A stretch of 64,000 nt of DNA from positions 81,519 through 145,518 of the forward strand of contig JAPLYG010000009.1 of the NCBI GenBank assembly GCA_026395685.1, read 5' to 3'. The notes beneath the pieces were generated by a model. It was not told the origin of the DNA. It saw only the letters and a list, made by a program, of their open reading frames with translations, and did not search any database. Source of the stretch: Candidatus Parcubacteria bacterium (lineage in GTDB: Bacteria; Patescibacteriota; Patescibacteriia; CAIXNZ01). The position numbers and the translations under genes were made by a program. Of the stretch, positions 42,563 to 64,000 are shown one piece after another (position 1 is the stretch's first letter; each line of letters starts with the position of its first letter).

Positions 42563-42714
42563 CCAGATACAAGTTTATGAGGCAATGTGTTTGAACGGTG
42601 GAAGTTGCATCAATCTATTTTAACCGTTAATTGGTTCTATTTCATAAACTTGTATCTGGGCTCCGTTTGTCCCCCTGTTTTATACAACTAAACGAAAACG
42701 AATAACGACATTCA

Positions 42715-42801
42715 GGAAGGGTGGCAGAGCGGTTGAATGTACCGGTCTTGAAAACCGGAGTCCCGTTTACGGGACCGTGGGTTCAAATCCCACCCCTTCC
42801 G
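42715..42801 (+). tRNA. tRNA-Ser (anticodon UGA)
   Basis: GGAAGGG...CCGGU-CUUGAAA-ACCGG with a long variable arm (AGUCCCGUUUACGGGACC), T arm GUGGG-UUCAAAU-CCCAC and acceptor 3' strand CCCUUCC. Confidence 0.8.
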
Positions 42802-42809
42802 CACATTAA

Positions 42810-43565: not shown

Positions 43566-44189
43566 CTATTGCCAATATGCTCCACTTACCTTCCAGACAT
43601 CGTTTTCTTTAACTAAATTCAAAAGTAATTCCTGAGTAAAGGTATTGGATGTCACACTGTCTTTTTTAAATTCCTCGCGCTGGGTAGAAACGCGGACTTC
43701 GGCTGTATTTTTTTCTTCATCAAAAGCCGAGATATTAATATTCAATACTTTTGTCTCAACAGCATAATATTCCGAGGTCGGATGCTTAGAGGAAATTTCA
43801 TTTGTATATGTTTCCAAAACCCACTCTTTCATTTTGGCTGTCATATAATCCTTTATATTGTCAAAATTAACAAAACCCAGCTGATTATTATAACTGCCGT
43901 AATTTTGGGCAAAAACATTTACCAAAGAGGTGATACTTTCCTTATCACCCTTTTTAACATTTTCAGCCTCGGGAATAATATTAGCTGTACCATTTGTAGG
44001 ACTGCCGTTATTATTATTTACTGAATTCCCGTTGGTATTGCCAGTTACCTGCTGATTTATAATATTGGCATTTTCATTTGTCACTAGAGGCTTTTTATTA
44101 ACCATCATCAGCGCCAAATAACCGCCAATAACCAAAATCATTATGATTAAAATGATAATTAGTAATAGAACAATTTTTTTACTCATCAT
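43566..44189 (-). CDS. Bitopic membrane protein (207 aa); possible VirB8-like T4SS component
   Basis: N-terminal TM (IVLLLIIILIIMILVIGGYLALMM), an N/T-rich linker and a ~130-aa C-terminal domain. Its size and topology, and its position immediately downstream of the VirB4-like gene, suggest VirB8. The assignment is inferred, not motif-based. Confidence 0.35.
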   Translation of the reverse strand: MMSKKIVLLLIIILIIMILVIGGYLALMMVNKKPLVTNENANIINQQVTGNTNGNSVNNNNGSPTNGTANIIPEAENVKKGDKESITSLVNVFAQNYGSYNNQLGFVNFDNIKDYMTAKMKEWVLETYTNEISSKHPTSEYYAVETKVLNINISAFDEEKNTAEVRVSTQREEFKKDSVTSNTFTQELLLNLVKENDVWKVSGAYWQ

Positions 44190-44212
44190 AAATTTATTTA
44201 AATATTATTTAA

Positions 44213-46144
44213 TTAAATAGGCAAATCTTCAACACCGGCTACCTTAGGAGTTACTTTACTTCCAGGAGCAACCTCCTTATTCCCCTGTAATTCAAATTCC
44301 CTTTTGGCAGCTTCAATCTCCAAAAGCTGACGGGGATCACTGGTAATAAGCTGGTCTTCAACATATGAGGCAACGACCTGAATAGCTGCGTGCTTGCGTC
44401 CGGCAAAGAAAATTCCTTCCCCTACCCCGCACTCCAAAAGCAGATATTTTTCACCTTCGGTAAGCACAAAAATTTGTTTAACCGTTTCAATCGAAGCGGG
44501 TGATTGTTTCAATAATAGCTGCATGGCTGAATTGGTTACAATTGCCTTGCCATAAGGATTGTTTAAAAAATCATTGACGTCCTGGGTAATAGTGGTGACT
44601 CCCAAATAATATTTGCGGCATCTTTTTACCAGGGCATAAATAAATTTTGCCGAATCTTCGCTTGTCATCAACCACCAAGCCTCGTCAATAACCATAATTC
44701 TTTTTTTTGTTATGGATCTGACAACATTCCAGATATAATTTACAATTGTATAAATTGCTATCGGCCTTAATTCGTCTTCCAAGTCTCGGACAGAAAACGC
44801 TACTAATTGATTGTTCATATCTACATTAGTCGGGGCATTAAACAAGCCGGAGAAAGTGCCGTCAGTATATTTTTTCAGACGGATACTCAATGATTCTGCC
44901 CCCAGCATACCAGATAAAATATTGTGCAAATCCTGCATGACCGGCACTTCTACTGTCGCTAAATCTGATTGCGGAGTAATATCTTTGCTGGCATAGGTCT
45001 CGATCAAAGCCCGATCCAGAATGGAATCTTCTTCCACGGTGAGCTTGCCCAGCATTAGGCGCAACAAGCCTTTTAAGGTAATAACCGCGCTGCGGATAAT
45101 ATCTTCGGTGGAGGCATCGCCGATTGATCTGGGCAAATCGAAAGGATTTATTTTATTTTTTGAAGACAAAGAAATATCGACAAAGGTGCCGCCGACTGCT
45201 TCAGTCAGGTGCAAATATTCTCTTTCCGGATCAATAATAATCACATCAGTTCCCAACATCAGGCTGCGTAAAACTTCTAATTTAACAGCGTAGCTTTTGC
45301 CGGCGCCTGAAGTGGCAAAAACCACAGCATTGGCATTTTGCATGGAAAAACGATCAAATAAAACCAAGCTGTTATTATGTCTGTTAATGCCGTATAAAAT
45401 ACCATCATCTGAGGTTAGCTCTGAAGAAATAAAGGGAAAAGAAGAAGCGCACGGTGACGTATTCATGTTAAAGGAAATCGTCAATTCATCATCGCAAAGC
45501 GGCAAAGTGGAATTGAAGCCCTGTTCTGACTGGTAAAAAACCTTGCGGCTATAAATCAGCTTACCGCCCAACATTGACTCGATTTCACTGGTTAGCTGAT
45601 CCATTTCTTCCTTGCTATTGGTATAAAACGTTATATAAAGGCCAAATTGAAAAAAATGCTCAATGCCCTGAGTCAGGTCATCCCTTAATTTTTCAATGTC
45701 TTTGATACCGGTTTCCAAAATCGGATCGCGGGGTGCGCCTTTTTCAACATCTGACATTAATTGCGCTTCCATATTGCCGACCCTCTTTTTTAGCTGCTTT
45801 AGGATAATATCAGCTTTGACAGGATAAAAATACATAGCCACATCCAAAGTCCTGCTCAAATTCACAATTGGCGTAAACCAGCCAACTGTTATATAGCGCG
45901 GATAATTAACCACAAATATGGTACGCACAAACTGATCTCCAAGCATTATCCAAAACGGCTTAACTTCAAAAGATGCCGGGGCAATCAAATCCTTCACTTC
46001 CACTAAGCCGCGGCGATAAATTTTCTCTTCCTGCAGAGTTACTGTTTCGGCCTTGCTTTTTACCGGCTCTTTTGGTCCTTTGCCTTTAAGCGGTACCGGC
46101 GACCGGGGGGCTGCTTGATTGAATTGACTGATATCAAGTGCCAT
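44213..46144 (-). CDS. VirB4/TrbE-family type IV secretion ATPase (ATPase core)
   Basis: Walker A (FATSGAGKSY) and Walker B (RIMVIDEAWW), plus conserved IYRRGLVEV...NYPRYITVGWF and TQDVNDF regions typical of VirB4/TraE/PrgJ. Confidence 0.75.
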   Translation of the reverse strand: MALDISQFNQAAPRSPVPLKGKGPKEPVKSKAETVTLQEEKIYRRGLVEVKDLIAPASFEVKPFWIMLGDQFVRTIFVVNYPRYITVGWFTPIVNLSRTLDVAMYFYPVKADIILKQLKKRVGNMEAQLMSDVEKGAPRDPILETGIKDIEKLRDDLTQGIEHFFQFGLYITFYTNSKEEMDQLTSEIESMLGGKLIYSRKVFYQSEQGFNSTLPLCDDELTISFNMNTSPCASSFPFISSELTSDDGILYGINRHNNSLVLFDRFSMQNANAVVFATSGAGKSYAVKLEVLRSLMLGTDVIIIDPEREYLHLTEAVGGTFVDISLSSKNKINPFDLPRSIGDASTEDIIRSAVITLKGLLRLMLGKLTVEEDSILDRALIETYASKDITPQSDLATVEVPVMQDLHNILSGMLGAESLSIRLKKYTDGTFSGLFNAPTNVDMNNQLVAFSVRDLEDELRPIAIYTIVNYIWNVVRSITKKRIMVIDEAWWLMTSEDSAKFIYALVKRCRKYYLGVTTITQDVNDFLNNPYGKAIVTNSAMQLLLKQSPASIETVKQIFVLTEGEKYLLLECGVGEGIFFAGRKHAAIQVVASYVEDQLITSDPRQLLEIEAAKREFELQGNKEVAPGSKVTPKVAGVEDLPI

Positions 46145-46147
46145 AAA

Positions 46148-46801
46148 TTATCTTTCTAAATTAAACTGAGTTAAATCCTTAATTTTTTGATTTTGGCTGG
46201 TCGTCGGATTATAGCAATTATAATACAGCTCAATCAATCCCTGAGTGTCCAGTGCAACGCTGTCAATGCCCATAGACTGCAGATTGGATCGTATATTATT
46301 AACCCTGAGCATTAATTCTTCCTTATATTTGGAAAAAACTTCCTTTCTTACTTTAATGATTTCTACCGGAAAAAGAGTTTCCTGAACTCTAGTAAAAAAA
46401 GATCTTTGTTTCTTTGAACCGGCCGGATGAAAGGGCACTACTACAAAAAACTTTTTGGTCATTATTTCATTCATTTCAATCAGCTGGCCGATATAATCAA
46501 TATAACCGGCTATTTGATTCCTCAAAAGCTCATTTTGCTGCAATTTTTCCGCTTCTTTTAAACGGCGGATATAACCCTCAATGTCTAATTTGCGCGACTG
46601 AATTACAATCTGTAAAGGATGGTCCAGGGAATTCAAAAACTGCATATATGATGAAATCAAAGCATTTTGTTCATCCTCGCCTTTCAAGGCGAAATTAACA
46701 CTGGAGCACATCAAAACAGCTCTTAAGGTGCCGTCGTGCATGATTACTATATCATCGCGGAATTCGGCCATTTGTAAATATTTTTGTACGGGAGCTGGCA
46801 T
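46148..46801 (-). CDS. VirB4 N-terminal (CagE/TrbE/VirB) domain, separated from the ATPase core by a single in-frame TAA
   Basis: DGTLRAVLMCSSVNFALKGEDEQNALISSYMQFLNSLDHPLQIVIQS resembles the N-terminal region of Gram-positive-type VirB4 homologues. It is in the same frame as 44213-46144: stop codon, one codon (TTT), then ATG. Confidence 0.55.
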   Translation of the reverse strand: MPAPVQKYLQMAEFRDDIVIMHDGTLRAVLMCSSVNFALKGEDEQNALISSYMQFLNSLDHPLQIVIQSRKLDIEGYIRRLKEAEKLQQNELLRNQIAGYIDYIGQLIEMNEIMTKKFFVVVPFHPAGSKKQRSFFTRVQETLFPVEIIKVRKEVFSKYKEELMLRVNNIRSNLQSMGIDSVALDTQGLIELYYNCYNPTTSQNQKIKDLTQFNLER

Positions 46802-46835
46802 ATTTTATATTATTATAAAAGTCAAAATTCAATAA

Positions 46836-47261
46836 TTATTCTTCTTCCTGATACGCACCGCCGGTATTAATGATCAAGCTTAAGGATGAAAGACGGGAGG
46901 TAACAAGCGGCGGTTTGATAATAAATTCTTTTTTCACTTCCATCTTCTCCGCTTTGACCACAGCCCGGGGCTCTACTTTTTTCCAAATTCGCATCTTAGG
47001 CTTTTTCAGAGTCTGCAGCAAATTAAGAAAAAAATAATGCATCGGCATGCCATTTATTTTAAAAAAAGCGATTAATAAAAATATTAAGGTAATTATAAGA
47101 GCAGATACAATAAAATAAGTAAAATTCATCGTCTTATACAATATAAAATCAATCATGGCGCAGACCATCATAATTAAAAACTGCCTAGTGGTAACCGGGC
47201 CGATAATTTTTGTTTCAATATCAATAAATTGGGGGACCAAAAATGGTCCAAGCATTGACAT
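46836..47261 (-). CDS. Small two-TM membrane protein, VirB3/PrgI-like (putative)
   Basis: 141 aa with two TM helices (FLIMMVCAMIDFILY; FIVSALIITLIFLLIAFF), placed immediately upstream of the VirB4 N-domain as VirB3 usually is. Confidence 0.35.
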   Translation of the reverse strand: MSMLGPFLVPQFIDIETKIIGPVTTRQFLIMMVCAMIDFILYKTMNFTYFIVSALIITLIFLLIAFFKINGMPMHYFFLNLLQTLKKPKMRIWKKVEPRAVVKAEKMEVKKEFIIKPPLVTSRLSSLSLIINTGGAYQEEE

Positions 47262-47319
47262 AATTTATAAAGGCTAAAGGCTTAATTTTAAATTTAAAAT
47301 TAAAAATTTAAAATTATCA

Positions 47320-48540
47320 TCAATATTTAAGACTCTTATTCAGTTCCATGATTGCCTTGAATTCAACCAAAGTCAAATCCCCCCGTTCCTTGATAACCTG
47401 TTCAAAAGACTTGCCCTCCAAAAGGGATTTATTCATGATCTCCGCATAAACCTTGTATAAAGGGCTGGATTTCAGAGCTAAAACTCCCTGAGAGCGCTTA
47501 ACCACTGATTCGCCTTCTAATATTTCCAGCTTATCGGCAATTTTCTGAACTGCTTGAATCGGATCTTTGGACAAACGGCGAAAATCAGTCAAAGTCAAAG
47601 CTGCTAATTCATCAACGGGACCATACAATTTCGGCTCAAACTTGACGTCTGAAAACTGGGGCCTGCTTTTGGGTTCATTTCTCTTAACCATCGGCTGATT
47701 CACGGGCATAACTGGCTGTATTGGCTCAGGAGCTCTGGTTATGGCGGGAGAAGCCAGCGGCGCTTGAGTATTTGCCTGCGGCGCCGGCAATTCTTTTTGA
47801 CTTTGTAGAAAATCTTCTTCTTCCATGATTTCTTCGACCAGGTCAGGCTGTGCTTGCCGAAGAGGAGCCGCTGTTTTTCCCAAAGACAGTCCTCTTTCTT
47901 TAAGTAAATCTTCAATATTAGTTTCTTGTTTTGGCGCTATCTGTTCCAAAAGATCAAAAGACTTTTTCGGCTTGGCCGCCACATCAATTTCCTGTTCACT
48001 GACATTGCTAACCGGCTGGACTGTCTGCTGTTTTAAATCAATTCCTCTTTTTTGCCAGTCTGCTTTTTTGATACGCAGAATTTGCAGCAGCTTTTCAACA
48101 GCTTCCAGGCCAAGTCCGACACCGCCGATTTTTTCAGATTTCAAAAGTGAATCTTTAAATTCAATTTCATCGCGGATATCCTGCAGATATGAAAGGATCA
48201 GCTTAACCAGGCGATCAGTCATTATTTCATCCGGGTAAATATCGGACTGAGCTATCAATGCCTTTATTTCCGTCTGCAAATCAAAATTCATTGCCTGCTG
48301 GCTTTTTAATTCTTCCAGCAAAGAGGCCTTATCCTTTTCCGGCAGAAGATTCATTTCCACTGACAAATCAATGGCAGCATCAATATCCATATTCAAAACC
48401 TTATGCAGGCTATAGCCGACTTTTTTTGCTTCGACTTCGCCTGAAAGAGCCGTCTGTGCCAGCTGGCTAAAAGTCCCCACATCCTGAATATTATATTTTT
48501 TTACTAATTCTGAAAAAATGTTTGAATTCATAATCTGCAT
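47320..48540 (-). CDS. Hypothetical acidic coiled-coil protein (406 aa) in the T4SS-like cluster
   Basis: Long ORF with a Pro/Gln-rich middle (PAPQANTQAPLASPAITRAPEPIQP). No known domain. Confidence 0.4.
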   Translation of the reverse strand: MQIMNSNIFSELVKKYNIQDVGTFSQLAQTALSGEVEAKKVGYSLHKVLNMDIDAAIDLSVEMNLLPEKDKASLLEELKSQQAMNFDLQTEIKALIAQSDIYPDEIMTDRLVKLILSYLQDIRDEIEFKDSLLKSEKIGGVGLGLEAVEKLLQILRIKKADWQKRGIDLKQQTVQPVSNVSEQEIDVAAKPKKSFDLLEQIAPKQETNIEDLLKERGLSLGKTAAPLRQAQPDLVEEIMEEEDFLQSQKELPAPQANTQAPLASPAITRAPEPIQPVMPVNQPMVKRNEPKSRPQFSDVKFEPKLYGPVDELAALTLTDFRRLSKDPIQAVQKIADKLEILEGESVVKRSQGVLALKSSPLYKVYAEIMNKSLLEGKSFEQVIKERGDLTLVEFKAIMELNKSLKY

Positions 48541-48565
48541 TAATTTAAAGAGGAAATTAAATGGG

Positions 48566-51500
48566 CTAAGTTTTTTCCAAAGACTTTACATTAGAGGCAA
48601 TATCAGTCAAAGAGCGCCTGACTCTGTCCTTGTCCTGTATCGCCAGCGGATTAGTCTGGATCTCCCGGACTAAATTGGTCATGGAATCTCGCAGTTTATT
48701 AGCCACTGACTGGTCAAATCTCGCACCCAAGCTTTCCTCCATCTTTTTGAGTCCGCTATCAAGATTTTCCTGCATTCTTTTCACTCCCCTCAAAAGCAAA
48801 TCATTGGTAGCAGCACCATCAACGGCCGTAGTACCGGCCTTTATAAAATTATTATAATAATTAGAAACATTTACTGTCGTGGTAGTAGAACTAGGTGCTG
48901 CCTCCGGTCTTGGAGCTGGAGCAGGAGCTGGAGCTGGCGCAGGTGCTGGTTCAGCAGTTCCTGCTGGCGCAGGTGCTGCGGGTTTTGGCTTAGGTGCTGG
49001 AGGAGGAGTTCCTGCTGGCGGAGGAGTCCCTGCTGGCGGTGGTGTAACTGGTGGCTCTTCCTCTTCCTCAGGTTCCTCTTCAGCTGATATATCTACATCT
49101 TTATCTCCTCTTTTTCTGGGAATAGCAAACTTATAGAAGCCAATACCTTGGGCTCGGCTCAAAATACCATACATTTGTCCGCGCTGTCCCTTTAGGTCTT
49201 TACCCTTCAACTCTTCTAATTCTCCAATTAATTCCTCAAGCTTATCAATCTCCATAAATTCAGGAGAATAACCGGCAGTTTCAACTTCTTCCCTGATAGA
49301 ATATGCCAACGCCTCTAACCCTGCCTGAGCACTGGTAATTTTATCAGGAGTAGCTTGACCACTATTAACCTTGGCCAAAAGTCTTTTCAATCTGTCAGAA
49401 ACTTTGCTTTCAGAAGTATTCTTAATCTCACGCTGGTTAATGACATCTCCGCCATGCTCAACATAATCCGCATTGATTTCATCAAAATTTTCTATCTGTC
49501 CGACTTCTGTTGTAGCCATTTTCTTCATACTGCGGGAAACTATTTCTTGTGCCTGTTGCGGAGGTACACCTTTAACTGATTCTAATAAATCCGGCATTTC
49601 TTTTTCCATTTTACTAATAACTTCAGCTGCATTTCGTTCTTGCGGAGTAACTGCTTTGCCCTCACGCATCTTATCCTTAATGCCTCTATAATCATAAAGC
49701 GAGTATTCTTCGCCTTTAATCTTAAATTTCTTTCTTTGTCCGCTTTGATTAAAGAAGATAACTTCAGCCATTTCCTTGCTGGTTTCTCCAGTGACAATAT
49801 CATGGCCAGTACCCTGGACATATTTACCGCCACTAGTCTTATAGCCTTCCTGCAAAGCCTGCATATTTTCCGTGGAATACAACTCTTTATGCATCAAATC
49901 CATCTGCTCTACTTTGCCTTTAATAAACTTATCTCTTGCCTCACCGGTTAAACCTTTTTTGCCTGCTTCTTCTTCAGCATATTTCCTTCTGCCTGCTTCA
50001 TCCTTAGAAGCTGTAATATAGTGCAGCTGCATATCTTCTTCCTTATCCTTAATGAATTTCTTTTTTTCTTCCGGAGTAGTTATTCTGCCTTCTTTTTCCT
50101 CTTTATCTGCTAAATCTGCTACGAGCTTCTTCCTCTCAGCGTCTGTTCCTGTTATCACTTTAATCAGATCACCGGTTGCTTTCTTGCCATTTTTCAGACC
50201 CTGTTCGCCAGACTGCTTCATGCGACCGGCATTTTTTGACAGACCCATCCACAACGCCATTTTTTGCGCAATATTTCCTTCAGCCAGACTTCCTGCCTGC
50301 TTATTATTCATCGCCTTAGTTACCTTTGAAGTATCAGCTGCAGCCGCACTCTTCATCGTGTCTTTAGCTTTTTGGATTTCACCTGCCGTACCAGCCTGCA
50401 CCAGTTGAAATTCATTGGTTTCAGGATTTCTGACTACAGCTGAAACAGATATGCGGTAACCGGTTTTTTCCTCATGTTTATCCTCCCATTTTTTTGATAA
50501 TGCTTCCATATTGGCAACACCTCCTTTAGCTGATTTTTCCAGATCAATTACTTTCTTGCCGGTGGTTTCATCTGTTTTTGTTTTAATACCATAATGTTCA
50601 AAAACACCCAAGTCTAAAGCTTTCTGCATATCATTATCATCAATTAAACCCTGCTCACCTTTGAGATTTAAAAGCGCCAGAAAACGATCGCCGGTAGCAG
50701 TTTTCATCCGCTCGTTAAGTATTTTCGGATCTTTATCTGAACCAACCAGGCGTTCTTGTTTTTCATAATTCTCAATTTCTTTTTGTCTTTGTTCCACCAA
50801 AGCGCCCGGCTTGCCGCCGATCCATTTTTCTACTTGGGCAGTCGAACGCTCTCCCAGAGTTTCACGTCCTTTTTTGGTGGCTACCAGACGAATACCTTTG
50901 GAAATAGCGCCAGAGATGCCACCGCCACGTTCTACTCTTTCTAATCCTTCCTTAGCTGTTAAGCCGGCATATTGTCCGACTTTTCCGGCTGACCATTTGG
51001 CTGTGCGCTCCATTCTGCCCAAAGTCGCATCCTGGATCTTGCCTGCTGCTTTGCCTGCATAGCTGGCGCCCAAAACTTTCATTTCAGAAGTAAATTTCAA
51101 ACCGGCGACCAGCATAATAATGCCCAGCATGTACTTGATAACATAATCCAGACGCCCGGCTTTGGAATTCGCCACTGCATCATCCAGATTTGCCTGTCCC
51201 AGTCCGCCTTCACTGACCTTGGCCAGTTCCGTGGCATACATTACCGTATAATTATTGTTCAGTGTCAGAATTGAAATCCATAAAAAGAAAGCTAAAAGCG
51301 GCCCAACCAGGCAGTATTCTATAAAACTGTTTAACCAACGGCTGCCATAACCTCCGATTCTGCCGCTGACTCCGGTAAAAGCCATAGAAGCAAAGGCAAG
51401 CGGTGAAAAAACAACCAAAACCCAAAGGACAATTATTCTAAAAATTAAAATAATCAGAAAGATCGCGACCACAATCAAGGCGACGACCACATACATGAGC

Positions 51501-52606: not shown

Positions 52607-52612
52607 AATTTA

Positions 52613-55600
52613 TTAATTGCACATAGAACCCTCGCAGCGGGAACCTGGGTTTAATGGATTCGGAATATTACACATATGGCAGTCAGGATTAAACTGTGTC
52701 GGCATACAGAAAGGCAACCAGGTATTACTATAAGTATAAGCAACCATTTTACACTTGGAATCTGCCACACAAGGAGCAGCCTCATCATATTCTTCACAGC
52801 CCAAAGTATCCTCTTTTATAATACAACCCATTGCATAAGTGCCAGCTGCCCAATGCTTACCCCAAAAACACTTAGGATCACGGGAACAAAGGAATCTGGT
52901 AGTCCATTTAGCACAGCCTGAAGAATCAAATCTGTCAACGCAAATACCGGTGGTCCAAGAGCAAAGGCCTAAAGTAGCATCACAATCTGCTTGAGATGTA
53001 TTCACGGAGCAATCTGTCCTACTGACACATGCAGGAGCCTTGGGCTCACAGCCAAATTGGTTTAGGCAACCAAACCATTGCTGATCAAGATTAATTTTAT
53101 AATCGCAGGTTGTTTTTGGCTCACAAAAATCTCCAAGAGTTGCTGCTGGAGTTGCTGTTGGAGCCTTCCAGTTACAAGCATCATTAGCTTGACAGGCACT
53201 CTTAAGCTGAATCGTTGTACAAAGATTCACGCATTGCTGATTGGGAAAATCCCAATAACAGCCATCATTGCCTGCTTCATTGCAGGTATCCTCGCTATAT
53301 TTTGTTTCACACGCAGAGGTGCAGAGATAATCTTCTCCGACCTCGCAGGTTGAACTATTTTTACATGCATTACTGGTTAATGGGGTTATATCTGATTTAC
53401 AGCAGACGCTGCCATAAGCAGTACATTGGATTCCCGGAGATAAAATATCTGTTTCCGCACAACTGCCAGAAGCCTGGCACTGGCCATTTATATAGGTATA
53501 ACCCGGATCGCCGACAGCTACTCCTGAACATAGCTGTGCAGTTACCAGCCCGGTAGTAGACATTTCTATACATTTATTTTCACATTTTAAATCTTGCTCA
53601 TTCCAGGAACAGTTTGTATTGCAACCAGCTGGATCTAAAATCAAATTGCAGGTATCACGGCAAACATCAGGCCGCCACTGACAAAATTTATCATCATTAC
53701 AAACTTTGGCATTAGGATTTGGAAGACAGCATATTGGAAAGTTATTATTCGGACATTTATTATCTACTGGAAACTCGTTAGATCCGCACTTACCCAGATT
53801 TTTTCTGCAGATACCGCCTGCATCTTTACAGGTTCCTACCGGAAGACTTTGTACTGCTGCCGGATATTTCTTATCGCACTGTAAATTACAGCTCCACCTC
53901 CAGCGATCTTTATCTGCCCAATAAGCATTCCAGGAGCAGTAATCTGCTTTTTGAGTCATACAAATCTCGCCTCTGGGGCCATGAGAATCAATATTTGTCG
54001 TACCCAAACCGCTATATCTATAAGTACAAATATCTTCCATGCAATAATGATTGAAATAGCTGCAATAAGTGGCAAGCGACTCACAGTCTTTTTGCTTTGT
54101 AGCTTCAGTGGCATTAATATTTGGCGTCGTAAGACTGCAAATATTGAAAAGGCAGGTAGCTGTGGCCTCATCCCAGGTACACATATCCTGGCCTGACTCA
54201 GTTACATCTTTTTCGCAATCTGTCTTATTCTTATGATAATCACACACATTTTTTATACATTGGCCGTTGTTCCACGCACAATAAGGCAGAAGTTCACACT
54301 TAGTTTTATTTTTCAGCAAGCCGCATTCGTCAATTTTAAAAGGAAAGTAAGTTAAACAAGCATTGGCGCCTTCACGATAAATTCCCCCATACAAGGGATT
54401 CAATAAATCATATTCCAGGCAACGGCCCTGAAAACCTAAATTTGTTTTAATGGTTTCAACAGCGCTGCATTGTCCGATGATTTTTTCATCAGTATTTTCC
54501 TCACTCAAAGGAATAACGCATTGGGGATTATTTTTTGTAACCCCCTGGCATAAGCGTCCCTCAACTGCTTTGTTGCCGGTACAAATTTGAGGCTTATTGT
54601 TTGATTCGCTTATAATTTTATTTAAAAATCCATAAGGAAAATAAGTAATGGTTCCTGTTGCTTCAGCCTTGTCATAATTACACCCGTCGGCAATATTTTT
54701 TAGGGTTAAAGTAGGACTAAAAAGATTAACCACCTTGCTATACTTGCTCAGCCGGGAAATATCATAAGGCAAAGGAGAATCTTCTTCCGGAAATATTTTG
54801 CAGACCGGGCTGATAAATCTTTGATCTGGTTCGGCAATGGGATCAACACTGGTATATTCCACGGGATACTTGGCAAACAAATATCCGTCATTAATTTCCA
54901 CTTCAACCGGATAGCGGTCAGGAATAGTATAACCGGAGTAATCTCCCAACTCCCAGCGTTTAATCGCATCATCCATGCCGGTTCCGCTTCCTGCAAATCT
55001 GGTAACATATGTGGCGCGGGTAATTTTTAATGGAGCCGAAGGTGTGGCTTTTGTATACCTGACTCCGTCAAAATTTGAGTGAATTAGAGGATCAGTATTA
55101 CCGGTATTTATTGTCTTGCTTATTTCCGTTGTCCCTTCAGAATTATAGGTAATAACCTGAGTCTGTCTGCAATTGCCTAGTCTGTCAGTTTCTGAACAGA
55201 TCACCCATTCTCCGCAGTCACGATCTTTGCTGACTTTTATAGTCTCAATATTATTATTACTGGTCTGATTTTTAAAAGCGACACAGCCTTTATTCCAATC
55301 AACGCTGGAACATGATGAACGGTCAATATTATTGCCGTTGTCAATTACATGATAAATCTGGCCGGAAGATTGATCCTGATTGATTGTCTGGAAACTGGAA
55401 CACCCGCTATATGCGCTCTGGCACTCACCGGTATAATTTATATACCCAGTATCAGTAACCTTAAGAATGCCAAAAGGATTGGCCACGCAAAGCCCTGCTC
55501 CTGAAGAAAGCCAGATGCCATGCTGATTTTCGCAATCAGCCTGACCTGTAGCTGACATGCCCTTACCGCACTGTTTCAAATCACCCACCCAGATACCGCC

Positions 55601-58600
55601 GCAATAGCTGCATGGTGTAGAACCAGTACTGCAGTCGGGCTGATTTCTCATGGTATTACATCCAATTTCTGTACCGGCCACAAACCAACCGCTTATAGTC
55701 TGCTGCTCGATCGGCTTATTAGCCTGGTACTGGCAAATTTTGGTCGGATCAATCTTGTAATATTCCGGCGAGCCGTTTTCATTGATCAGTTCCACGCAGC
55801 CTTCAGCATCCTGATTGCATAAAATTGCGCGCGCGCCTTCATAATTATCAGGATTATTTTTCAGATAAGCAACATCATAAACCACACCTGAACCCTGAGT
55901 CAAAACCGGCTCTTCAAATTTCTGACAGCCTTTATTCTCATACGTGCACTTGAATTTTTGGTTAACCACATAGGCTGTAAGTACATCTGACGGCACTGCA
56001 ATGTTCAGACTGGTCTTTGTATTCGGCGCTAAAGAATTCTGGGTATCAATCAGGTATTGGCAGCCAACTTTGTCAGCAGCGCATAATTTGCTGAATGATT
56101 TAAGATAAAACATCTGGCTGTTTGGCCCGCGATAAGCCGCGCAATTATAATCTACATAGGTGCAATTGGGCTGTGACCAGCTGTTTTTTATCAGATAATA
56201 ATTGTCTTTTTGCTGGATCAGGCTGATATTATCAAGGTTAAGCACATCAGTGCCGGAAACATTATTAAAGGTAATTGAGTCAAATGAAGAATTCAAATAG
56301 ATTGGCCCCAATTGGTACATATTCCAGGTATTCAATAATTCGGTTTCGCCAAAATTAGTTATGCGCAAAGTGCCGTTACCTTTGGCTGTAAATTGTAGAA
56401 TATAATAGTTGCCTTTGGAAAGAGTTGCTTGCCTGACAGCCGAGCCATAAGCCGCGATTTCCAGGGAATGACCGCCGGCATCCTGGCTGGCGGAACTTAA
56501 GCTGATGCCAGGACCGCTATACTGGGTCGGTAAATTGACGCTGTCTTCAAAAGTATCGTTAAATGAATGATAGGTATTATAAATGCCGGCACCATAATAA
56601 TGATAACATCCTGCCTGGGCTGCCGGACATTTCATGCTTAAAGAAGAAATGCCATCGTAAACGCAGTACTTATTGGTTTCATCCCACTTGCCATTAGTGA
56701 CACCGCAGGTTTCTTGAGTCGCAATGGTTTTTCTGTAAGGATGGCAATCTGCTGAGGCAATAATGGTTTTTCTGACATCCCGAAAATAAGTATTTCCGGC
56801 TGAATCGTAAAACTTCAGGCAATAACCGGTTGACAAAACATTGCTCCTGCAATCCTCTGAATTATCAAAAGTTTTGGGAGAACCGTCACCATTTGCCTGT
56901 AAAACATGCTTGACCACTTGTTGCGGTCCATCAGAAATACTTTCCCAGGTATAAAAAGTCTGTTCCCCCAAGCCAGAACCGGGCTTAATGCACTGCCTGA
57001 GCATTGTATAGTATTCAATGCCCTCGCCTCCCTTGGCTACTTCATCTAAATTAGTAAATTGGGAACAGCCGACATTAGCTGCCTGACAGGTTGTAGCAGT
57101 CTTTGGTACAAAGTCGGCTAATTCGCGAATCGGCTCAAAAGCAGTAGGCTGTTGAATATATTGATTATAACCGACGCATTCTGCCGGACACTGATCATCT
57201 TCCTGAATTACAGCCGTAACATCAGGATCACCATTTACCGGCTGGTACAAAGCGCAACCAACATCATCAGAGGAACATTTCATCATAAAATTATTGCAAT
57301 CATTGCGGGTGGGGCTGCTAGAATCGCAATTGGCGCTGGTTTTGTAATATACTCTGGTTGCCAAAACATCCTGATCATAACTGGCCGGCAAAACAAAACC
57401 CGTTGCCTGAAAATCGCTGATAGTCGTAGGATTTGCGATATATTCATGGCAGCCGTCATTCTTTTCCTCGCATGTTTCGATATTGCGATTGAAATAAAAT
57501 TTATCTAAGTTGTAGGTTTTATCAATTGATTTATAGCCTTTGCAATTAACTGTATCGGGCCCGCAATTGGAGGGGTCTAAAGTATTTTTGAGATACGCCA
57601 AATCAGCTTCACGGCCATTGGATTGAATCTGAGTATAGGTACGACAGCTGGAAAAATAGTCCGGGCAGGCTTTAGCGCTAAAACGCCAGACATTCTTTTC
57701 CTTAACACAAACCTGATAATTGCTGCTGCCGCAGGATTTAGGCTGATCATCTTTGACACAACTCACAAAATCAGCGCAACGCGAATAGCGGCGTCCTGAT
57801 TGATTATCCGTCAGAAGTTCGCCAAATGATTCAACCTGCAATGTCCTGGCGTCAGTCGGCAGATAACACTTGGTAGCCGGAATTTTTAAAACCCAATATG
57901 GATCAACCAGATTGCAAAATGGTGATTCTGCAGTGTCATAATTGCCGCAAATACCGTCCTGGCCGCGCTTATCAAAAGCAGTAACAATCTCCCCAAAAGT
58001 AGCATTGACAACCTGATTATACATTAATTTATTAACTTCTATATCAGTCCCAAATTTACAATTGTCAATCCTTTGTTTCGCATAGGGGGAAATAGGAAGT
58101 GTGGTCATTGATAAATCAATAAACTGTCCGAAATCATTACCCGTTGAAGCTGTATAAGCGCAATTAGCCGTACCCGGTACACAGGAAACACAACTGGCAT
58201 TATCAGCAGACCAAGAACACAAATTAGTAATGGATAGACAACTAGACAGTCCCAGGCTCTGGCAGGGATTATAATATTTACGGAAGTTACAATCTCTTAC
58301 CAGTTCAGCTGCCAGCTCCATGCCCAAAGGCACAACACGCGCTTTTCTCAGTTTTCTTATATTGGATAAATTGTAGGTATTATCTTCAATCTCTTCACCC
58401 CAGGAAAATGTGGCACCGGACTTTAATTTGCCCTGGCTAAGCGCCTGATCAATGGTCAGCCTGTTTTGAATAGCCATGGCAAAACTTTGATCAATGACCT
58501 GATTATAAATATTGGGATTAGCATTTTTACCCTGCAGATTGAGCTGGAATTCCTGCAATAAATCCAGATCGGAAAATTCATTATTGGTGCCCGGCTCAAA

Positions 58601-60205
58601 ACTGGTGAAATAAAGGGATACTCCGGACTCGGTAATAATACTTTGATTCTCTTTGACGAAAATACTGCCTTTATTTTCCTTCTGTTTTCTGGGATTTGAC
58701 AGAGCCATCATAAGCTCATTGATATACAAATTATATAATTCCTGTAAAAAGACGCCCAAAGAATCAGCCACAATACTCTTTGTATATTCAGTCATGCTGT
58801 CAGATGGAGTGAGAGACTGAATTGATTTCGCTTTCAAAATATCAGCCGGAGTTTTAATATAGCCTGTTACTTTATCCACCATGCCTTTCCAGCCGCCACT
58901 GGTACTGACTTCTGTTTTTTTGCGTTCTTCTGCTTCAGTCTGGGCTTTGCCTGTGCCTTCTTGCACCTGCGTTTTAGTGGTATTGGCCGGATCTGCCTGT
59001 GGTTCAAACTGAGTTTTTGCTTTTTGATAAGTATAAAGTCCGGCTCCGCGGAACATCTTGGCCTGGATGCGGTTATTAACAAATTTTTGCAGCTGCTCGT
59101 AGCCATTACTGATAGAATTATAAAGATTAGCGGCATCCTGCAGTTTAGCCTGGGCTTCGCGCTGAAAAATACCTGCCGCCTGAGAACCAGGTGCCACTTC
59201 AGCTGCAGTCGGGATCGTAGTATAACCGACATTCATTAAGGCTTGCTTGCATTGATTAATTAAGCCAGTGGCGTCTTTTTTCATGCAGGCTTGGTAGGTG
59301 GCGCGGCTGGTATTAACCGGACGCTGGGCATCATTAATTTTTTTATTCCAGGCACTTTTAATATCAGGTATATATTCTTCAGAAACATAATAATTGCTGC
59401 CCACAGTCAGGGTAACCGGCTGGTTTGTTCCCCTGCCGGCTATTAATTTATCAACGTCAGCATCTAATTGCTGTCTGGTAAGGTCTAAGGCTGCTGCTTT
59501 GGCTGTTAAATCTGATTTAGCCGAGGTACCTGCTAAAAGACTGTCACTGGTAATATCACGATTGATTTGGCTTACTGTCTGCTGAAAATTCGGACCAATA
59601 TCAGTTGTTTTAATTTTAATGAAATCCTGCCATTCCTTGCCTTCGAAATTAAATTGTTCCTTTAATTCCAAAAAGCTGCAACCTTTGGGAACTGCGCCAA
59701 AAATGCTTTTTTGCGCTAAAGTGTCGGGCTTATTCGGCAAAGTCAGGGCAATATTCAAGGTCAGAGTAGGATCAAAATGGCAGAGATCAAGGCCGATTCC
59801 CTGGCTTACTGCTCCCGTCAACCAGTCTTCAAAAGCAGCCTGGCCCTGGTCTTTTATCGCACCATAAGGGTCTGTTTCCCAAATCGGCTTTTGGCCTTTG
59901 CCCATTAAAACAATCGAGGAAGCGGTTTTTTTGGCAAATTCTCTGCCCAGATTGGCAACTACGTTTTTGAAAAAAGTCGCTTTCAGATCGTCCAATACTT
60001 CGTCTTTAGTAAATTTTGCAAATTCCAATCCCTTCCAACCCGTCTGGATGGATGATAAAAGAGAATCAATTACCATCTGGACCTGGGCATTAGCCGGATT
60101 AATATCAACAAAAAGAAAAAAATAAAAATTGCTTAGCACAAAAAAGAAAACCAAAAAGGAAAGAATCGCCTTATTGATTTTCTTTTTATTTTCATTTCCC
60201 CGCAT
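52613..60205 (-). CDS. Giant Cys-rich secreted protein (2530 aa), last-but-one gene of the T4SS-like block
   Basis: N-terminal signal/TM (ILSFLVFFFVLSNFYFFLFV...ANA), about 150 Cys throughout, and no internal stops. No confidently recognisable catalytic domain. Confidence 0.6.
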   Translation of the reverse strand: MRGNENKKKINKAILSFLVFFFVLSNFYFFLFVDINPANAQVQMVIDSLLSSIQTGWKGLEFAKFTKDEVLDDLKATFFKNVVANLGREFAKKTASSIVLMGKGQKPIWETDPYGAIKDQGQAAFEDWLTGAVSQGIGLDLCHFDPTLTLNIALTLPNKPDTLAQKSIFGAVPKGCSFLELKEQFNFEGKEWQDFIKIKTTDIGPNFQQTVSQINRDITSDSLLAGTSAKSDLTAKAAALDLTRQQLDADVDKLIAGRGTNQPVTLTVGSNYYVSEEYIPDIKSAWNKKINDAQRPVNTSRATYQACMKKDATGLINQCKQALMNVGYTTIPTAAEVAPGSQAAGIFQREAQAKLQDAANLYNSISNGYEQLQKFVNNRIQAKMFRGAGLYTYQKAKTQFEPQADPANTTKTQVQEGTGKAQTEAEERKKTEVSTSGGWKGMVDKVTGYIKTPADILKAKSIQSLTPSDSMTEYTKSIVADSLGVFLQELYNLYINELMMALSNPRKQKENKGSIFVKENQSIITESGVSLYFTSFEPGTNNEFSDLDLLQEFQLNLQGKNANPNIYNQVIDQSFAMAIQNRLTIDQALSQGKLKSGATFSWGEEIEDNTYNLSNIRKLRKARVVPLGMELAAELVRDCNFRKYYNPCQSLGLSSCLSITNLCSWSADNASCVSCVPGTANCAYTASTGNDFGQFIDLSMTTLPISPYAKQRIDNCKFGTDIEVNKLMYNQVVNATFGEIVTAFDKRGQDGICGNYDTAESPFCNLVDPYWVLKIPATKCYLPTDARTLQVESFGELLTDNQSGRRYSRCADFVSCVKDDQPKSCGSSNYQVCVKEKNVWRFSAKACPDYFSSCRTYTQIQSNGREADLAYLKNTLDPSNCGPDTVNCKGYKSIDKTYNLDKFYFNRNIETCEEKNDGCHEYIANPTTISDFQATGFVLPASYDQDVLATRVYYKTSANCDSSSPTRNDCNNFMMKCSSDDVGCALYQPVNGDPDVTAVIQEDDQCPAECVGYNQYIQQPTAFEPIRELADFVPKTATTCQAANVGCSQFTNLDEVAKGGEGIEYYTMLRQCIKPGSGLGEQTFYTWESISDGPQQVVKHVLQANGDGSPKTFDNSEDCRSNVLSTGYCLKFYDSAGNTYFRDVRKTIIASADCHPYRKTIATQETCGVTNGKWDETNKYCVYDGISSLSMKCPAAQAGCYHYYGAGIYNTYHSFNDTFEDSVNLPTQYSGPGISLSSASQDAGGHSLEIAAYGSAVRQATLSKGNYYILQFTAKGNGTLRITNFGETELLNTWNMYQLGPIYLNSSFDSITFNNVSGTDVLNLDNISLIQQKDNYYLIKNSWSQPNCTYVDYNCAAYRGPNSQMFYLKSFSKLCAADKVGCQYLIDTQNSLAPNTKTSLNIAVPSDVLTAYVVNQKFKCTYENKGCQKFEEPVLTQGSGVVYDVAYLKNNPDNYEGARAILCNQDAEGCVELINENGSPEYYKIDPTKICQYQANKPIEQQTISGWFVAGTEIGCNTMRNQPDCSTGSTPCSYCGGIWVGDLKQCGKGMSATGQADCENQHGIWLSSGAGLCVANPFGILKVTDTGYINYTGECQSAYSGCSSFQTINQDQSSGQIYHVIDNGNNIDRSSCSSVDWNKGCVAFKNQTSNNNIETIKVSKDRDCGEWVICSETDRLGNCRQTQVITYNSEGTTEISKTINTGNTDPLIHSNFDGVRYTKATPSAPLKITRATYVTRFAGSGTGMDDAIKRWELGDYSGYTIPDRYPVEVEINDGYLFAKYPVEYTSVDPIAEPDQRFISPVCKIFPEEDSPLPYDISRLSKYSKVVNLFSPTLTLKNIADGCNYDKAEATGTITYFPYGFLNKIISESNNKPQICTGNKAVEGRLCQGVTKNNPQCVIPLSEENTDEKIIGQCSAVETIKTNLGFQGRCLEYDLLNPLYGGIYREGANACLTYFPFKIDECGLLKNKTKCELLPYCAWNNGQCIKNVCDYHKNKTDCEKDVTESGQDMCTWDEATATCLFNICSLTTPNINATEATKQKDCESLATYCSYFNHYCMEDICTYRYSGLGTTNIDSHGPRGEICMTQKADYCSWNAYWADKDRWRWSCNLQCDKKYPAAVQSLPVGTCKDAGGICRKNLGKCGSNEFPVDNKCPNNNFPICCLPNPNAKVCNDDKFCQWRPDVCRDTCNLILDPAGCNTNCSWNEQDLKCENKCIEMSTTGLVTAQLCSGVAVGDPGYTYINGQCQASGSCAETDILSPGIQCTAYGSVCCKSDITPLTSNACKNSSTCEVGEDYLCTSACETKYSEDTCNEAGNDGCYWDFPNQQCVNLCTTIQLKSACQANDACNWKAPTATPAATLGDFCEPKTTCDYKINLDQQWFGCLNQFGCEPKAPACVSRTDCSVNTSQADCDATLGLCSWTTGICVDRFDSSGCAKWTTRFLCSRDPKCFWGKHWAAGTYAMGCIIKEDTLGCEEYDEAAPCVADSKCKMVAYTYSNTWLPFCMPTQFNPDCHMCNIPNPLNPGSRCEGSMCN

Positions 60206-60245
60206 ATATATAAAAATTTATGAGTTAATATTTTTAAAAAATTAT

Positions 60246-61067
60246 TTACTCATACTTATTAATAATCTGATCAAAAATCTGCTTTAATGTCTCATCATCT
60301 AGCTGGTCAACCGTAGCCTTATCCATGCCTCTGATGATCAGTTCTTCACGCAGCTGCGCCGGGGTCATATTTTTCAAATTATCAAGAGCCTGCTTTTTTT
60401 CTTCATCGGTCGCAACACCTTCCTGGCTTACAGCTCCGACATTCTTCATTTCATCAAACATTTTCTGAAGTTCCGGATTATCAATGCCAATATCCTTTAA
60501 AGTTTTGGTGCCGGCAATTAATTCCTGCTGATACTGCATGAGCTTGTCCATATCGCCTTCTTTCAGCGTATTCAATACTTCGCTTGGAGAATAAGTGCTT
60601 TCCGGCAAAGCAGCGGTTTCATTAATATTTAAAGCTCCGCAAACCTGGCCCTGCGGGCAATTGGGATCTTCGCCCTTGAGCAGTTCGTCCTTATCGCTGA
60701 TTTTATCACTATCAGTATCGGATAAATATGGGCTGGTGCCGTAAATATTCAGTTCGCTCCAATCATCCAAACCGTCCAAATCGCTGTCTTGATTTTTCAA
60801 TTGGGCAATCACTTCTTCCTCACTAGTCTGGAATAATTTGTTATACTCATCAATCAGCTGGCCGCGCTTATGCTCGAGTAATGAGGGGTAAAGCGGACCC
60901 TGAATATTTTTAATAAACTGCAGATAGCCAAGACCGACCGCAGAAATTGTAATCAATATTAAAAAAAACACGAAAAACTTTTCCATCGGAGTTTTTTCGA
61001 TTTTAGATACAATTTTTTCGGCTTTTGGCTCTAAGTAATTTTTGATTTTCTCATCAATTGGCGACAT
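60246..61067 (-). CDS. Membrane-anchored protein with Asp-rich Ca-binding-like (TSP3/dockerin-type) repeats (273 aa)
   Basis: TM (FFVFFLILITISAVGLGYLQF) and DSDLDGLDDWSE...DTDSDKISDKDE loops. Confidence 0.4.
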   Translation of the reverse strand: MSPIDEKIKNYLEPKAEKIVSKIEKTPMEKFFVFFLILITISAVGLGYLQFIKNIQGPLYPSLLEHKRGQLIDEYNKLFQTSEEEVIAQLKNQDSDLDGLDDWSELNIYGTSPYLSDTDSDKISDKDELLKGEDPNCPQGQVCGALNINETAALPESTYSPSEVLNTLKEGDMDKLMQYQQELIAGTKTLKDIGIDNPELQKMFDEMKNVGAVSQEGVATDEEKKQALDNLKNMTPAQLREELIIRGMDKATVDQLDDETLKQIFDQIINKYE

Positions 61068-61996: not shown

Positions 61997-62112
61997 AAAA
62001 TTGAATTTAAAATTCAAAATGCAAAGTGCAAAATTACAAATCAAAAATTAAAATTTTGGTATTCTTTTATTTTAATAAAACATTCCAGAATTTTAAACTA
62101 ACAACTGCAACT

Positions 62113-63915: not shown

Positions 63916-64000
63916 AAAAGAGTTTAAAGTTCAAAGTTTAAAATGCAAAGTTACAGTGTAAAATTCAAAATTTTGGAATATATATTATTTAAAAAAACTT

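Follow-up and report, generated by a model that had tools for sequence, protein, structure and literature searches.

What kind of machine is encoded by a block of eight genes lying between ksgA and comF in a Candidatus Parcubacteria bacterium, and do the unusually large proteins encoded in the block belong to that machine? The block occupies positions 43566 to 61067 of a 64,000-nucleotide stretch of DNA (the window; assembly GCA_026395685.1, contig JAPLYG010000009.1, positions 81,519 to 145,518). A sequence-only reading, made without database searches, had proposed that it specifies a minimal type IV secretion system (T4SS)-like module carrying giant secreted cargo or surface proteins. We followed up this proposal with profile, structure, and synteny analyses and, at a probability of roughly 75%, read the block as a vertically inherited chromosomal T4SS of a Patescibacteria-specific lineage, derived from monoderm conjugation machinery of the mating-pair-formation class FATA (MPF-FATA), arranged in the layout of class ABY1, and serving episymbiotic contact.

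A minimal translocon with a split VirB4

All eight open reading frames (ORFs) were confirmed as co-directional and on the minus strand. With lengths in amino acids (aa) and the evidence for each in parentheses, they are as follows.

60246..61067, minus strand: 273-aa bitopic acidic protein (hydropathy, composition, synteny)
52613..60205, minus strand: 2530-aa Cys-rich exported giant (ORF, composition, synteny with the VirB6-like gene)
48566..52606, minus strand: 1346-aa VirB6-like protein (homologues, fold)
47320..48540, minus strand: 406-aa soluble protein (same position in relatives)
46836..47261, minus strand: PrgI/VirB3-like small membrane protein, 141 aa, two transmembrane (TM) segments (Pfam PrgI)
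46148..46801, minus strand: TrsD/TraC-like protein, a separate N-terminal domain of VirB4, 217 aa (NCBIfam TrsD)
44213..46144, minus strand: VirB4 ATPase, 643 aa (NCBIfam, Pfam, PDB, Walker motifs)
43566..44189, minus strand: VirB8-like bitopic protein, 207 aa (AF2 model and Foldseek)

The spacers between them, from the 273-aa gene to the VirB8-like gene, are 40, 6, 25, 58, 34, 3, and 23 nt, so that the range is 3 to 58 nt and not the 3 to 45 nt originally given. Scanning the block for promoters and terminators gave no useful signal, as the number of terminators equaled that expected from shuffles. In the deposited record (locus tags NTZ49_026xx-027xx), the products are named as a PrgI family protein (MCX6740112.1), a TraC family protein, and a DUF87 domain-containing protein, and the others are hypothetical, including the 273-aa protein (MCX6740116.1). 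The exact translations of the VirB6-like ORF (48566-52606) and the 406-aa ORF (47320-48540) are missing from public proteins, unlike those of their neighbors; the deposited annotation of these two genes probably uses other start codons.

The 643-aa protein is a VirB4 ATPase. It matched the NCBIfam model conju_CD1110 at 355.7 bits (cutoff, 325), Pfam P-loop_TraG (6.8e-27), TIGR00929 VirB4_CagE (1.1e-34), and the VirB4 structure 4ag5 in the PDB (2.1e-44), and both its Walker A motif (ATSGAGKS) and its Walker B motif (IMVIDEA) are intact. Its counterparts in relatives, including Buchananbacteria and Uhrbacteria metagenome-assembled genomes (MAGs), are 72 to 82% identical to it. The 217-aa ORF, 3 nt upstream of virB4, matched NCBIfam TrsD (4.5e-10). 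Because the 217-aa ORF aligns to positions 11-139 of the CD1110 model and the 643-aa protein to the complementary positions 170-729, we concluded that VirB4 is split into two polypeptides, and the same split is kept in the related loci L001, L003, L004, and L005. In L004 (ENA contig_23783; 16194-18129), virB4 itself is called as three pieces of 87, 110, and 374 aa that jointly align to the window VirB4 and represent either a pseudogene or assembly frameshifts.

The membrane subunits were assigned by a combination of profiles and predicted structure. The 141-aa protein, with its two TM segments, matched Pfam PrgI at 33.6 bits (cutoff, 27) and is 47 to 70% identical in relatives. The 1346-aa protein has a signal-like N terminus, an ectodomain with 18 Cys, and ~6 to 7 TM segments at residues 211-510, and its VirB6/TrbL-type assignment comes from its predicted fold and from TrbL/TrbL_3 matches of family members: many of its 155 homologues (750 to 1360 aa) have a precomputed match to PF19590 (TrbL_3), and one member, P0041, scored 25.2 bits against TrbL/VirB6 (cutoff, 25.9). 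For the 207-aa protein, whose family comprises 1305 representative clusters, neither direct searches of Pfam, NCBIfam, and PDB sequences nor family-profile searches of Pfam and PDB sequences gave a sequence-level match, the profile yielding nothing but TM or coiled-coil noise. Its AF2 model (pLDDT, 85.6 overall and >94 in the domain) predicts a TM helix (residues 4-30), a low-complexity linker, and an NTF2-like alpha/beta cone (residues 82-206). The best solved Foldseek match of this model was the VirB8 domain of PrgL (7aed; E 2.3e-5), and others were CagV (TM-score, 0.74), TraE, TrwG, Agrobacterium tumefaciens VirB8 (2cc3), and TcpC (3ub1), the VirB8-type matches having E values of 2e-5 to 7e-4 at a probability of 1.0. 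Generic NTF2 enzymes match the model too, so gene position beside virB4 adds to the VirB8 call; the gene in this position (beside virB4, opposite TrsD) is labeled VirB8 in Table S3 of PMC12102498.

Taken together, these results show that the locus encodes a minimal cytoplasmic-membrane translocon consisting of a split VirB4, a PrgI/VirB3 anchor, a VirB6-like polytopic subunit, and a VirB8-like subunit of predicted NTF2 fold. The sequence-only reading had named all of these components, as VirB3-like, VirB4 N-domain, VirB4 ATPase, VirB6-like polytopic, and VirB8-like bitopic proteins, and its assignments held. In place of an ATPase with no VirB4 match among membrane proteins of unrelated families, which would have spoken against it, we found VirB4 accompanied by PrgI, VirB6, and VirB8 matches.

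Gene order, neighbors, and conjugation genes

We scanned one genome per species and took neighborhood counts from the 80 best loci, anchored on the VirB6-like gene and restricted to loci with at least 8 kb of upstream DNA for the upstream count and at least 7 kb of downstream DNA for the downstream count. A relative of the VirB6-like protein is encoded in at least 583 species genomes, those named being Buchanan-, Uhr-, Falkow-, and Komeilibacteria. Upstream of the VirB6-like gene, a co-directional giant homologue was present at a distance of no more than 10 kb in 45 of 52 informative loci; downstream of that gene, VirB4 was present in 39 of 49. In the loci inspected, the giant homologues (2381 to 3351 aa) lay directly or closely upstream. 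A JGI metagenome contig, a Buchananbacteria MAG, and an ENA contig, in which the VirB6-like protein is only 36 to 40% identical, preserve the whole order (ksgA-273-giant-VirB6-406-PrgI-TrsD-VirB4-VirB8-comF-168-recG), and because all eight genes keep their order at this level of identity, the arrangement of the block is far beyond chance. Identity is highest for VirB4, declines through TrsD, PrgI, the VirB8-like protein, and the 273-aa protein, and is lowest for the VirB6-like protein and the giant (26 to 43%); giants across linked species are only ~23 to 40% identical. ksgA lies upstream of the 273-aa homologue in L001, L003, L089, and the P0126 contig and in 12 scanned loci. Judged by its gene order in relatives, the locus is vertically inherited chromosomal equipment and not an island. 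Many of the species-representative MAGs with this locus (L012, L014, L017, L020, and others) are titled “uncultured Gammaproteobacteria bacterium,” which looks like a placeholder or mislabel.

The genes around the block are as follows.

61127..62044, minus strand: ksgA/rsmA rRNA dimethyltransferase, upstream neighbor (Pfam RrnaAD, 1.8e-44)
42810..43547, minus strand: comF, ComFC-type phosphoribosyltransferase with a double zinc ribbon, downstream neighbor (Pfam DZR_2, Pribosyltran)
39317-41383: recG
32149-33486: radA

On the comF side, the order is comF, two tRNA-Ser genes, a 168-aa membrane protein, tRNA-Arg, and recG, the three tRNA genes spanning 41531-42802. On the other side, ksgA/rsmA is followed by a DUF2304 protein, a Y1/IS200-like transposase homologue, and a GT2 glycosyltransferase. 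The 168-aa membrane protein between comF and recG (41859-42365, minus strand) has no family match; it is 50 to 62% identical in L001, L003, and L004 and thus travels with the locus. The tRNA-Ser(GCT) gene at 42469-42565 (plus strand) is an ARAGORN call that, unlike the other two tRNAs, is not in Rfam at the gathering threshold. Between radA and recG lies the gene for another very large protein (1360 aa; 34290-38372, minus strand), which combines a papain-family C1 peptidase domain (1.6e-39) with DUF333 and a GLUG motif and might be a protease, either secreted or at the surface, with a bearing on episymbiosis.

These neighbors place the locus in a published context. In a survey of Patescibacteria, VirB4 was present in 2,417 of 3,035 genomes, nearly all in one clade nested in MPF-FATA, and the T4SSs had TrsD (a feature reported for 2,272 patescibacterial proteins), PrgI/VirB3, VirB6, and VirB2-like pilins and generally lacked relaxases (Quinonero-Coronel et al. 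2025, PMC12102498). VirB8 was rare and almost entirely restricted to class ABY1, in which the locus typically included comF, recG, and radA, and functional coordination with these genes was suggested; ksgA was also common near virB4 (PMC12102498). Because the comF, recG, radA, and ksgA neighbors of our block match that description, we identify the locus with the T4SS already published for Patescibacteria, in the arrangement of class ABY1; it is not a new discovery. That CD1110 is the best family of the window VirB4, together with its high identity to Buchananbacteria and Uhrbacteria proteins, lends indirect support to its placement in the clade nested in MPF-FATA.

The same neighbors could instead point to a competence-type T4SS, like Helicobacter pylori ComB or archaeal Ced, that takes up DNA and passes single-stranded DNA to ComF, RadA, and RecG. 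comF directly follows the VirB8-like gene, recG lies ~2 kb beyond comF, and radA is ~10 kb away; comF (10 loci) or radA (23 loci) is the next recognizable gene in 33 of the 35 loci with a VirB8-like gene. The survey noted this co-localization in ABY1 as well and suggested functional coordination (PMC12102498). The locus also resembles ComB in having no type IV coupling protein (T4CP) or relaxase, and VirB4 has a weak NCBIfam CedB match (3e-13). That match, however, is far below the VirB4 matches of the same protein and reflects shared ATPase ancestry, and the neighbors may represent ancestral gene order beside housekeeping genes (ksgA, tRNAs). In Southlakia epibionticum, transposon sequencing identified a homologous T4SS cluster, devoid of coupling and relaxase proteins, as one that epibiotic growth requires (Wang et al. 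2023, PMC10633639), whereas deletion of comEC is viable (2025 review, PMC12857230); the essential role there is thus not natural transformation. A Sec-exported giant with sugar-binding relatives (see below) likewise fits cell contact better than uptake of free DNA. We therefore consider DNA uptake, although the leading alternative, an unlikely function.

The sequence-only reading had also stated that the module lacks a relaxase, VirD4, and an integrase and looks like a dedicated secretion or cell-contact apparatus, not a conjugative element. Among the 8 block proteins and 29 further window ORFs (114 to 1360 aa, including every ORF of at least 250 aa), we found no relaxase, VirD4/TcpA-type coupling protein, or integrase. 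The published survey detected only 109 relaxase homologues, in 103 of 3,035 genomes. One relative, L006 (1-22790), has a T4CP-like gene (TrwB_AAD_bind, TraG-D_C) ~10 kb downstream, so coupling proteins exist in some relatives. By analogy with the systems described in PMC12102498 and PMC10633639, where the same inference was made, we consider episymbiotic contact and the exchange of macromolecules with a bacterial host, and not conjugation, to be the most likely function of the machine.

Another reading is a decayed or integrated integrative and conjugative element (ICE) inserted beside tRNA genes, its relaxase, T4CP, and integrase having been lost or lying outside the window. In its favor, the family nearest to the VirB4, CD1110, is one of conjugative elements; ICEs classically insert at tRNA genes; AT-rich direct repeats are found at ~41.5-41.8 kb and 62.0-62.6 kb; and a Y1/IS200-like transposase gene lies at 62635-63240. 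The locus, however, sits between the same housekeeping genes in distant relatives; its GC content (0.39 to 0.45) is continuous with that of the flanks, with no discontinuity; and the scarcity of relaxase homologues across Patescibacteria contrasts with the abundance of VirB4. Moreover, the repeats recur upstream of unrelated genes, which argues that they are not att sites. An ICE is extremely unlikely, and the vertically inherited T4SS remains our preferred reading.

The repeats were examined as att sites and rejected as such, the same tandem heptamer clusters (AAAGTTY, three to five copies) being found upstream of unrelated genes elsewhere in the window. Clusters occur at 63919-63952, 62109-62142, 62009-62035, 41686-41712, 41495-41528, and 25521-25547 (17 matches versus 0.46 expected). 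They are intergenic, mostly just upstream of minus-strand starts (GT2, ksgA, recG, and the gene at 24581-25507), and longer repeat families (66, 35, and 33 nt) join 41.5-41.8 kb with 62.0-62.6 kb and 63.9 kb. The heptamers and longer repeats are probably promoter, regulatory, or REP-like elements. Adjoining the clusters, the Y1/IS200-like gene (minus strand) encodes a 201-aa protein (Pfam Y1_Tnp, 3.5e-8) that may be a REP-associated (RAYT-like) domesticated transposase. Elsewhere, positions 10001-16000 have a GC content of 0.42 to 0.46 versus ~0.37, and several ORFs there lack family matches; this stretch may be of foreign origin. Within it, a 228-aa ORF at 11326-12012 (minus strand) has a weak, below-cutoff match to OMP_b-brl (9.6e-5), which is odd for a presumed monoderm.

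The exported giant and its partners

The subdivisions of the giant, all on the minus strand, are as follows.

60086..60205, minus strand: signal peptide, residues 1-40, ending ...PANA/Q (the slash marks cleavage)
58256..60085, minus strand: N-terminal domain, conserved and Cys poor, residues 41-650 (alignment of giants)
54236..57928, minus strand: central Cys-rich conserved region, residues 760-1990 (invariant alignment columns)
56201..56554, minus strand: divergent CBM_4_9-like jelly-roll segment, residues ~1218-1335 (alignment to relative L007)
52616..54235, minus strand: variable Cys-rich C-terminal region, residues 1991-2530 (contains a 6-Cys CC-P module)

The giant had been described as Cys rich and secreted, and it contains 140 Cys (5.5%) behind an N-terminal hydrophobic Sec signal peptide. 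All 26 aligned giants (2200 to 3233 aa, 3.2 to 5.5% Cys) begin with a basic-hydrophobic Sec signal peptide, which in nearly all of them ends in an A-x-A/Q-type cleavage site. Residues 1-1990 are conserved family-wide, and the last 540 are variable, being conserved only in the closest relatives. The central region holds dozens of invariant cysteines, mostly in C-x6-C pairs (25 in the giant versus 9.6 ± 2.8 in shuffles), and eight C-x5-G-C motifs. The window giant itself gave no significant match in Pfam, NCBIfam, or PDB sequence searches. Pfam CBM_4_9 (PF02018), however, is present in 15 of 18 giants (best E, 4e-13), scoring 40.6 bits in L007 and 48.3 bits in L041 (gathering cutoff, 25.9), and the L007 domain aligns to residues 1218-1298 of the window giant. 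We found no paper in the searchable literature describing giants or Cys-rich T4SS-linked proteins in Patescibacteria. Thus, whereas the core system is already known, the giant is an undescribed conserved exported partner of the VirB6-like gene.

Is the giant a component of the apparatus or something the apparatus exports? The earlier proposal had allowed for either cargo or a surface protein. Its very large size, the lack of a recognizable membrane anchor or sortase motif at its C terminus, and its place in the operon might suggest an effector delivered by the T4SS. The classical Sec signal peptide, however, directs the giant to Sec export, which in a monoderm needs no T4SS, and there is no outer membrane to cross, unlike in the case of pertussis toxin. 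A dense disulfide-type Cys pattern implies extracytoplasmic folding, and family-wide conservation of the first 1990 residues is unlike the pattern of typical fast-evolving effectors. We therefore regard delivery as cargo as very unlikely; the surface half of the proposal stands, and we favor a surface or structural component on the basis of these sequence features.

A second question is whether the giant and the 273-aa and 406-aa proteins are T4SS parts at all. The giant might be an independent adhesin or S-layer-like protein in a conserved neighborhood: neither it nor the 406-aa protein has a T4SS family match, unrelated genes follow the giant on the P0126 contig, and gene order is generally conserved in these small genomes, ksgA and recG included. 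On the other hand, the linkage in most informative loci persists although the giants have diverged to the extent described above, and L006 keeps the giant, the VirB6-like gene, and the following gene (459 aa) together without an adjacent virB4. Only 6 and 25 nt separate the VirB6-like gene from its co-directional neighbors, and a 6-Cys module is common to the VirB6-like ectodomain and the giant's C terminus. Independence of these proteins from the T4SS thus seems improbable, and we continue to treat the giant as a partner of the T4SS.

The subdivisions of the VirB6-like protein, which carries this module in its ectodomain, are as follows.

51977..52501, minus strand: ectodomain, residues 36-210, extracellular, 18 Cys
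50912..52051, minus strand: transmembrane domain, residues 186-565
48569..50911, minus strand: tail, residues 566-1346, Cys free, K/E rich, coiled-coil-like (composition)

The Cys pattern of the ectodomain, C..C..C....C...CC-P, repeats about three times and has no Pfam match, but it matches the giant's variable C terminus at residues ~2126-2162 (53730-53840; blastp E, 6e-9). The Cys-rich ectodomain is a lineage-specific part of the VirB6-like protein: only the nearest relatives have it, and across the family the N-terminal extension has a median length of 27 aa. The sequence-only reading had described a Pro-rich fibrous tail whose fusion to a VirB6-like channel was not standard, and neither description survived. 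The 816 residues after the last TM segment contain 11.3% K, 10.7% E (K plus E, 22%), 4.7% P, and 0% C, and the sole Pro/Ala run is 48 residues long (1185-1232; 48911-49054). A family profile of the tails matched only coiled-coil proteins such as SMC and dynactin, and long tails are the rule in this family (median, 512 aa; minimum, 364). The tail is inferred from its sequence to be cytoplasmic. Tandem DNA repeats occur at 48887-49042, within the tail-coding part of the gene.

Two further proteins accompany the giant and the VirB6-like protein, and direct Pfam, NCBIfam, and PDB sequence searches gave nothing significant for either. The 273-aa protein has a TM segment (residues 26-53) followed by an extracellular, thrombospondin-type-3-like D-rich stretch of the DxDxDG type, and its homologues in L001 and L003 have weak precomputed Pfam TSP3_bac matches; it may thus bind Ca, as had been suggested. 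Its counterparts at the equivalent position in relatives are 45 to 56% identical to it; in 18 loci its gene is found on the upstream side of the giant, and it accompanies both ksgA and the giant. The 406-aa protein, which has no TM segment or signal peptide, is soluble and, as noted previously, acidic, although only mildly so. It has a helical N-terminal part, a Pro-rich linker, and a conserved C-terminal domain of ~110 aa. In 53 of 80 loci, a homologue separates the VirB6-like gene from PrgI. A family alignment gave no significant Pfam or PDB match. It is a candidate cytoplasmic accessory or adaptor.

The N terminus of the giant offers a further, tentative connection. The virB5 gene is immediately upstream of virB6, and the giant gene holds the corresponding place before the VirB6-like gene. 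A mature N-terminal motif, hydrophobic-(P/V)-V-x-D, which we noticed post hoc and give as a description, occurs in about half of the 26 giants (AQ/FVVTDIP, AQ/LVVTDP, AQ/MVVSDP, AT/IPVIDS, and AT/FPVVDV; the window giant has AQ/VQMVID). The same motif is present in ~8 of 11 genuine VirB5 proteins taken from plasmids (e.g., AQ/FVVSDP in Ti VirB5, AQ/GIPVFD, AQ/IPVTD, and AG/IPVVD) but not in Ti-plasmid TrbJ. Pfam DUF4141 weakly matched 6 of 10 giant N termini (E, 0.004 to 0.18, all below cutoff), over the signal-peptide end and the first 20 to 30 mature residues; apart from this, what the N-terminal profile matched in Pfam and among PDB sequences amounted to TM or coiled-coil noise. A hidden Markov model (HMM) of the giants' N termini ranked VirB5 first among 826 Ti-plasmid ORFs, but with an E value of 0.26 over 28 residues, and a VirB5 N-terminal HMM run against 4432 ORFs gave 0.14 to 0.19 for the best giants, with no enrichment beyond that expected from their length. 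We found no VirB5 in Patescibacteria in the searchable literature.

In the R388 T4SS, a VirB5 pentamer sits on a VirB6 pentamer and the N-terminal part of VirB5 projects outward like a pore former (Mace et al. 2022, PMC9259494), an arrangement that would give the giants' motif a plausible role. The giant could then be the missing extracellular half of the ABY1 T4SS, a Sec-exported VirB5-like tip with its N-terminal domain docked on the VirB6-like platform and a disulfide-stabilized body that replaces the pilus and outer-membrane core, grips host polysaccharide, and perhaps inserts into the host envelope; the 273-aa and 406-aa proteins would be further subunits. Because the profile tests were not significant, we keep this as a possibility and not as a finding, and on balance we doubt it. 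If true, a VirB5-like giant would be a previously unrecognized architecture for a monoderm T4SS.

Proposed mechanism and comparison with known systems

How might such a machine work? By analogy with R388, VirB4/TrsD hexamers, anchored by PrgI, would lie under a VirB6-like platform ringed by the VirB8-like protein. Lineage-specific Sec-exported proteins (the giant and the TSP3-like 273-aa protein) would supply the extracellular part in place of an outer-membrane core, reaching through the wall and binding the host-cell surface. On the cytoplasmic side, the coiled-coil tail of the VirB6-like protein and the 406-aa protein might act as a scaffold or substrate adaptor, replacing a VirD4-type coupling protein.

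Several observations weigh against this reading. The 64-kb window showed no VirB1-like hydrolase, no T4CP, and, in a hydropathy screen of small ORFs for signal-peptide-plus-two-TM arrays, no obvious VirB2-like pilin array; the contig, however, is 164.6 kb long and belongs to an incomplete MAG, so that missing genes may lie elsewhere, and in the published survey a VirB2-like pilin gene or array was near virB4 in 1135 assemblies and not universal (PMC12102498). The giant is absent within 10 kb in 7 of 52 loci, virB4 is absent within about 7 to 8.6 kb in 10 of 49, and no VirB6-like gene directly follows the P0126 giant. What ties the giant and the 273-aa and 406-aa proteins to the T4SS is synteny alone, the CBM-like segment of the window giant is subthreshold in Pfam (no match of its own at E ≤ 0.1), and the topology of the VirB6 tail is read from Cys content and charge alone. 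Finally, function in ABY1 is extrapolated from Saccharimonadia, and the conserved comF, radA, and recG neighbors could point to DNA import instead.

A very large part of bacterial diversity belongs to the Patescibacteria, most of which seem to live attached to other microbes. No T4SS before theirs had been shown to be essential for the survival of its owner, as was done in a saccharibacterium. To the catalogue of core genes, the window locus adds nothing. What it does bring out is that the ABY1 VirB6-like gene is almost always paired with a giant exported disulfide-rich protein, CBM bearing in most relatives, and that this giant, together with two further conserved unknowns, can credibly be proposed as the part of the ABY1 T4SS that contacts the host.

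The closest known systems are those of other Patescibacteria (PMC12102498; SEML1_0006-0019, PMC10633639), which share with the window a chromosomal location, VirB4 with an adjacent TrsD, PrgI/VirB3, VirB6, VirB8, and no relaxase or T4CP nearby; the ABY1-specific comF, recG, and radA, as well as ksgA, are present in the window. The survey detected no adhesins in these loci and left unmatched genes grey (PMC12102498). The window differs in that no VirB2-like array or VirB1-like hydrolase was seen and in that the giant, 273-aa, and 406-aa genes, conserved in dozens of species, are undiscussed in the published survey.

With the Gram-positive MPF-FATA systems (pCF10, the Clostridioides difficile CTn CD1110, and TrsD of pGO1), the window shares a CD1110-type VirB4, PrgI, a TrsD-like protein, and a PrgL-like VirB8 domain. 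The gene order in pCF10 is prgH-I-J-(K)-L, which the window order VirB6-VirB3-VirB4-VirB8 parallels. Unlike these conjugative systems, the window has no relaxase, T4CP, PrgK-type hydrolase, or LPXTG adhesin (PrgB), its locus is chromosomal and vertically inherited, and its VirB6-like protein carries the long tail and a Cys-rich ectodomain.

In F-type systems, TraG is a VirB6-like polytopic protein with a long extra domain, and TraN is its Cys-rich exported partner, which contacts the other cell. The pairing of a VirB6-like protein with a Cys-rich exported protein in our block resembles this arrangement by analogy only; the comparison was made through Pfam alone and gave no TraN or TraG_N match at E ≤ 0.1, and the F-type envelope is diderm, whereas that of the window organism is monoderm. 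The VirB5-VirB6 stalk of the R388/VirB T4SS (PMC9259494) differs more, in that the giant is about ten times larger than VirB5 and has no significant profile match to it (E, 0.14 to 0.46), and the window has no VirB2 pilus partner or outer-membrane complex. Finally, the extended VirB6 paralogues of Rickettsiales (PMC7648143) likewise have a VirB6 core fused to very long hydrophilic C-terminal extensions; they belong, however, to an unrelated lineage and MPF class, whereas the patescibacterial tail is Cys free, K/E rich, coiled-coil-like, and the norm for its family.

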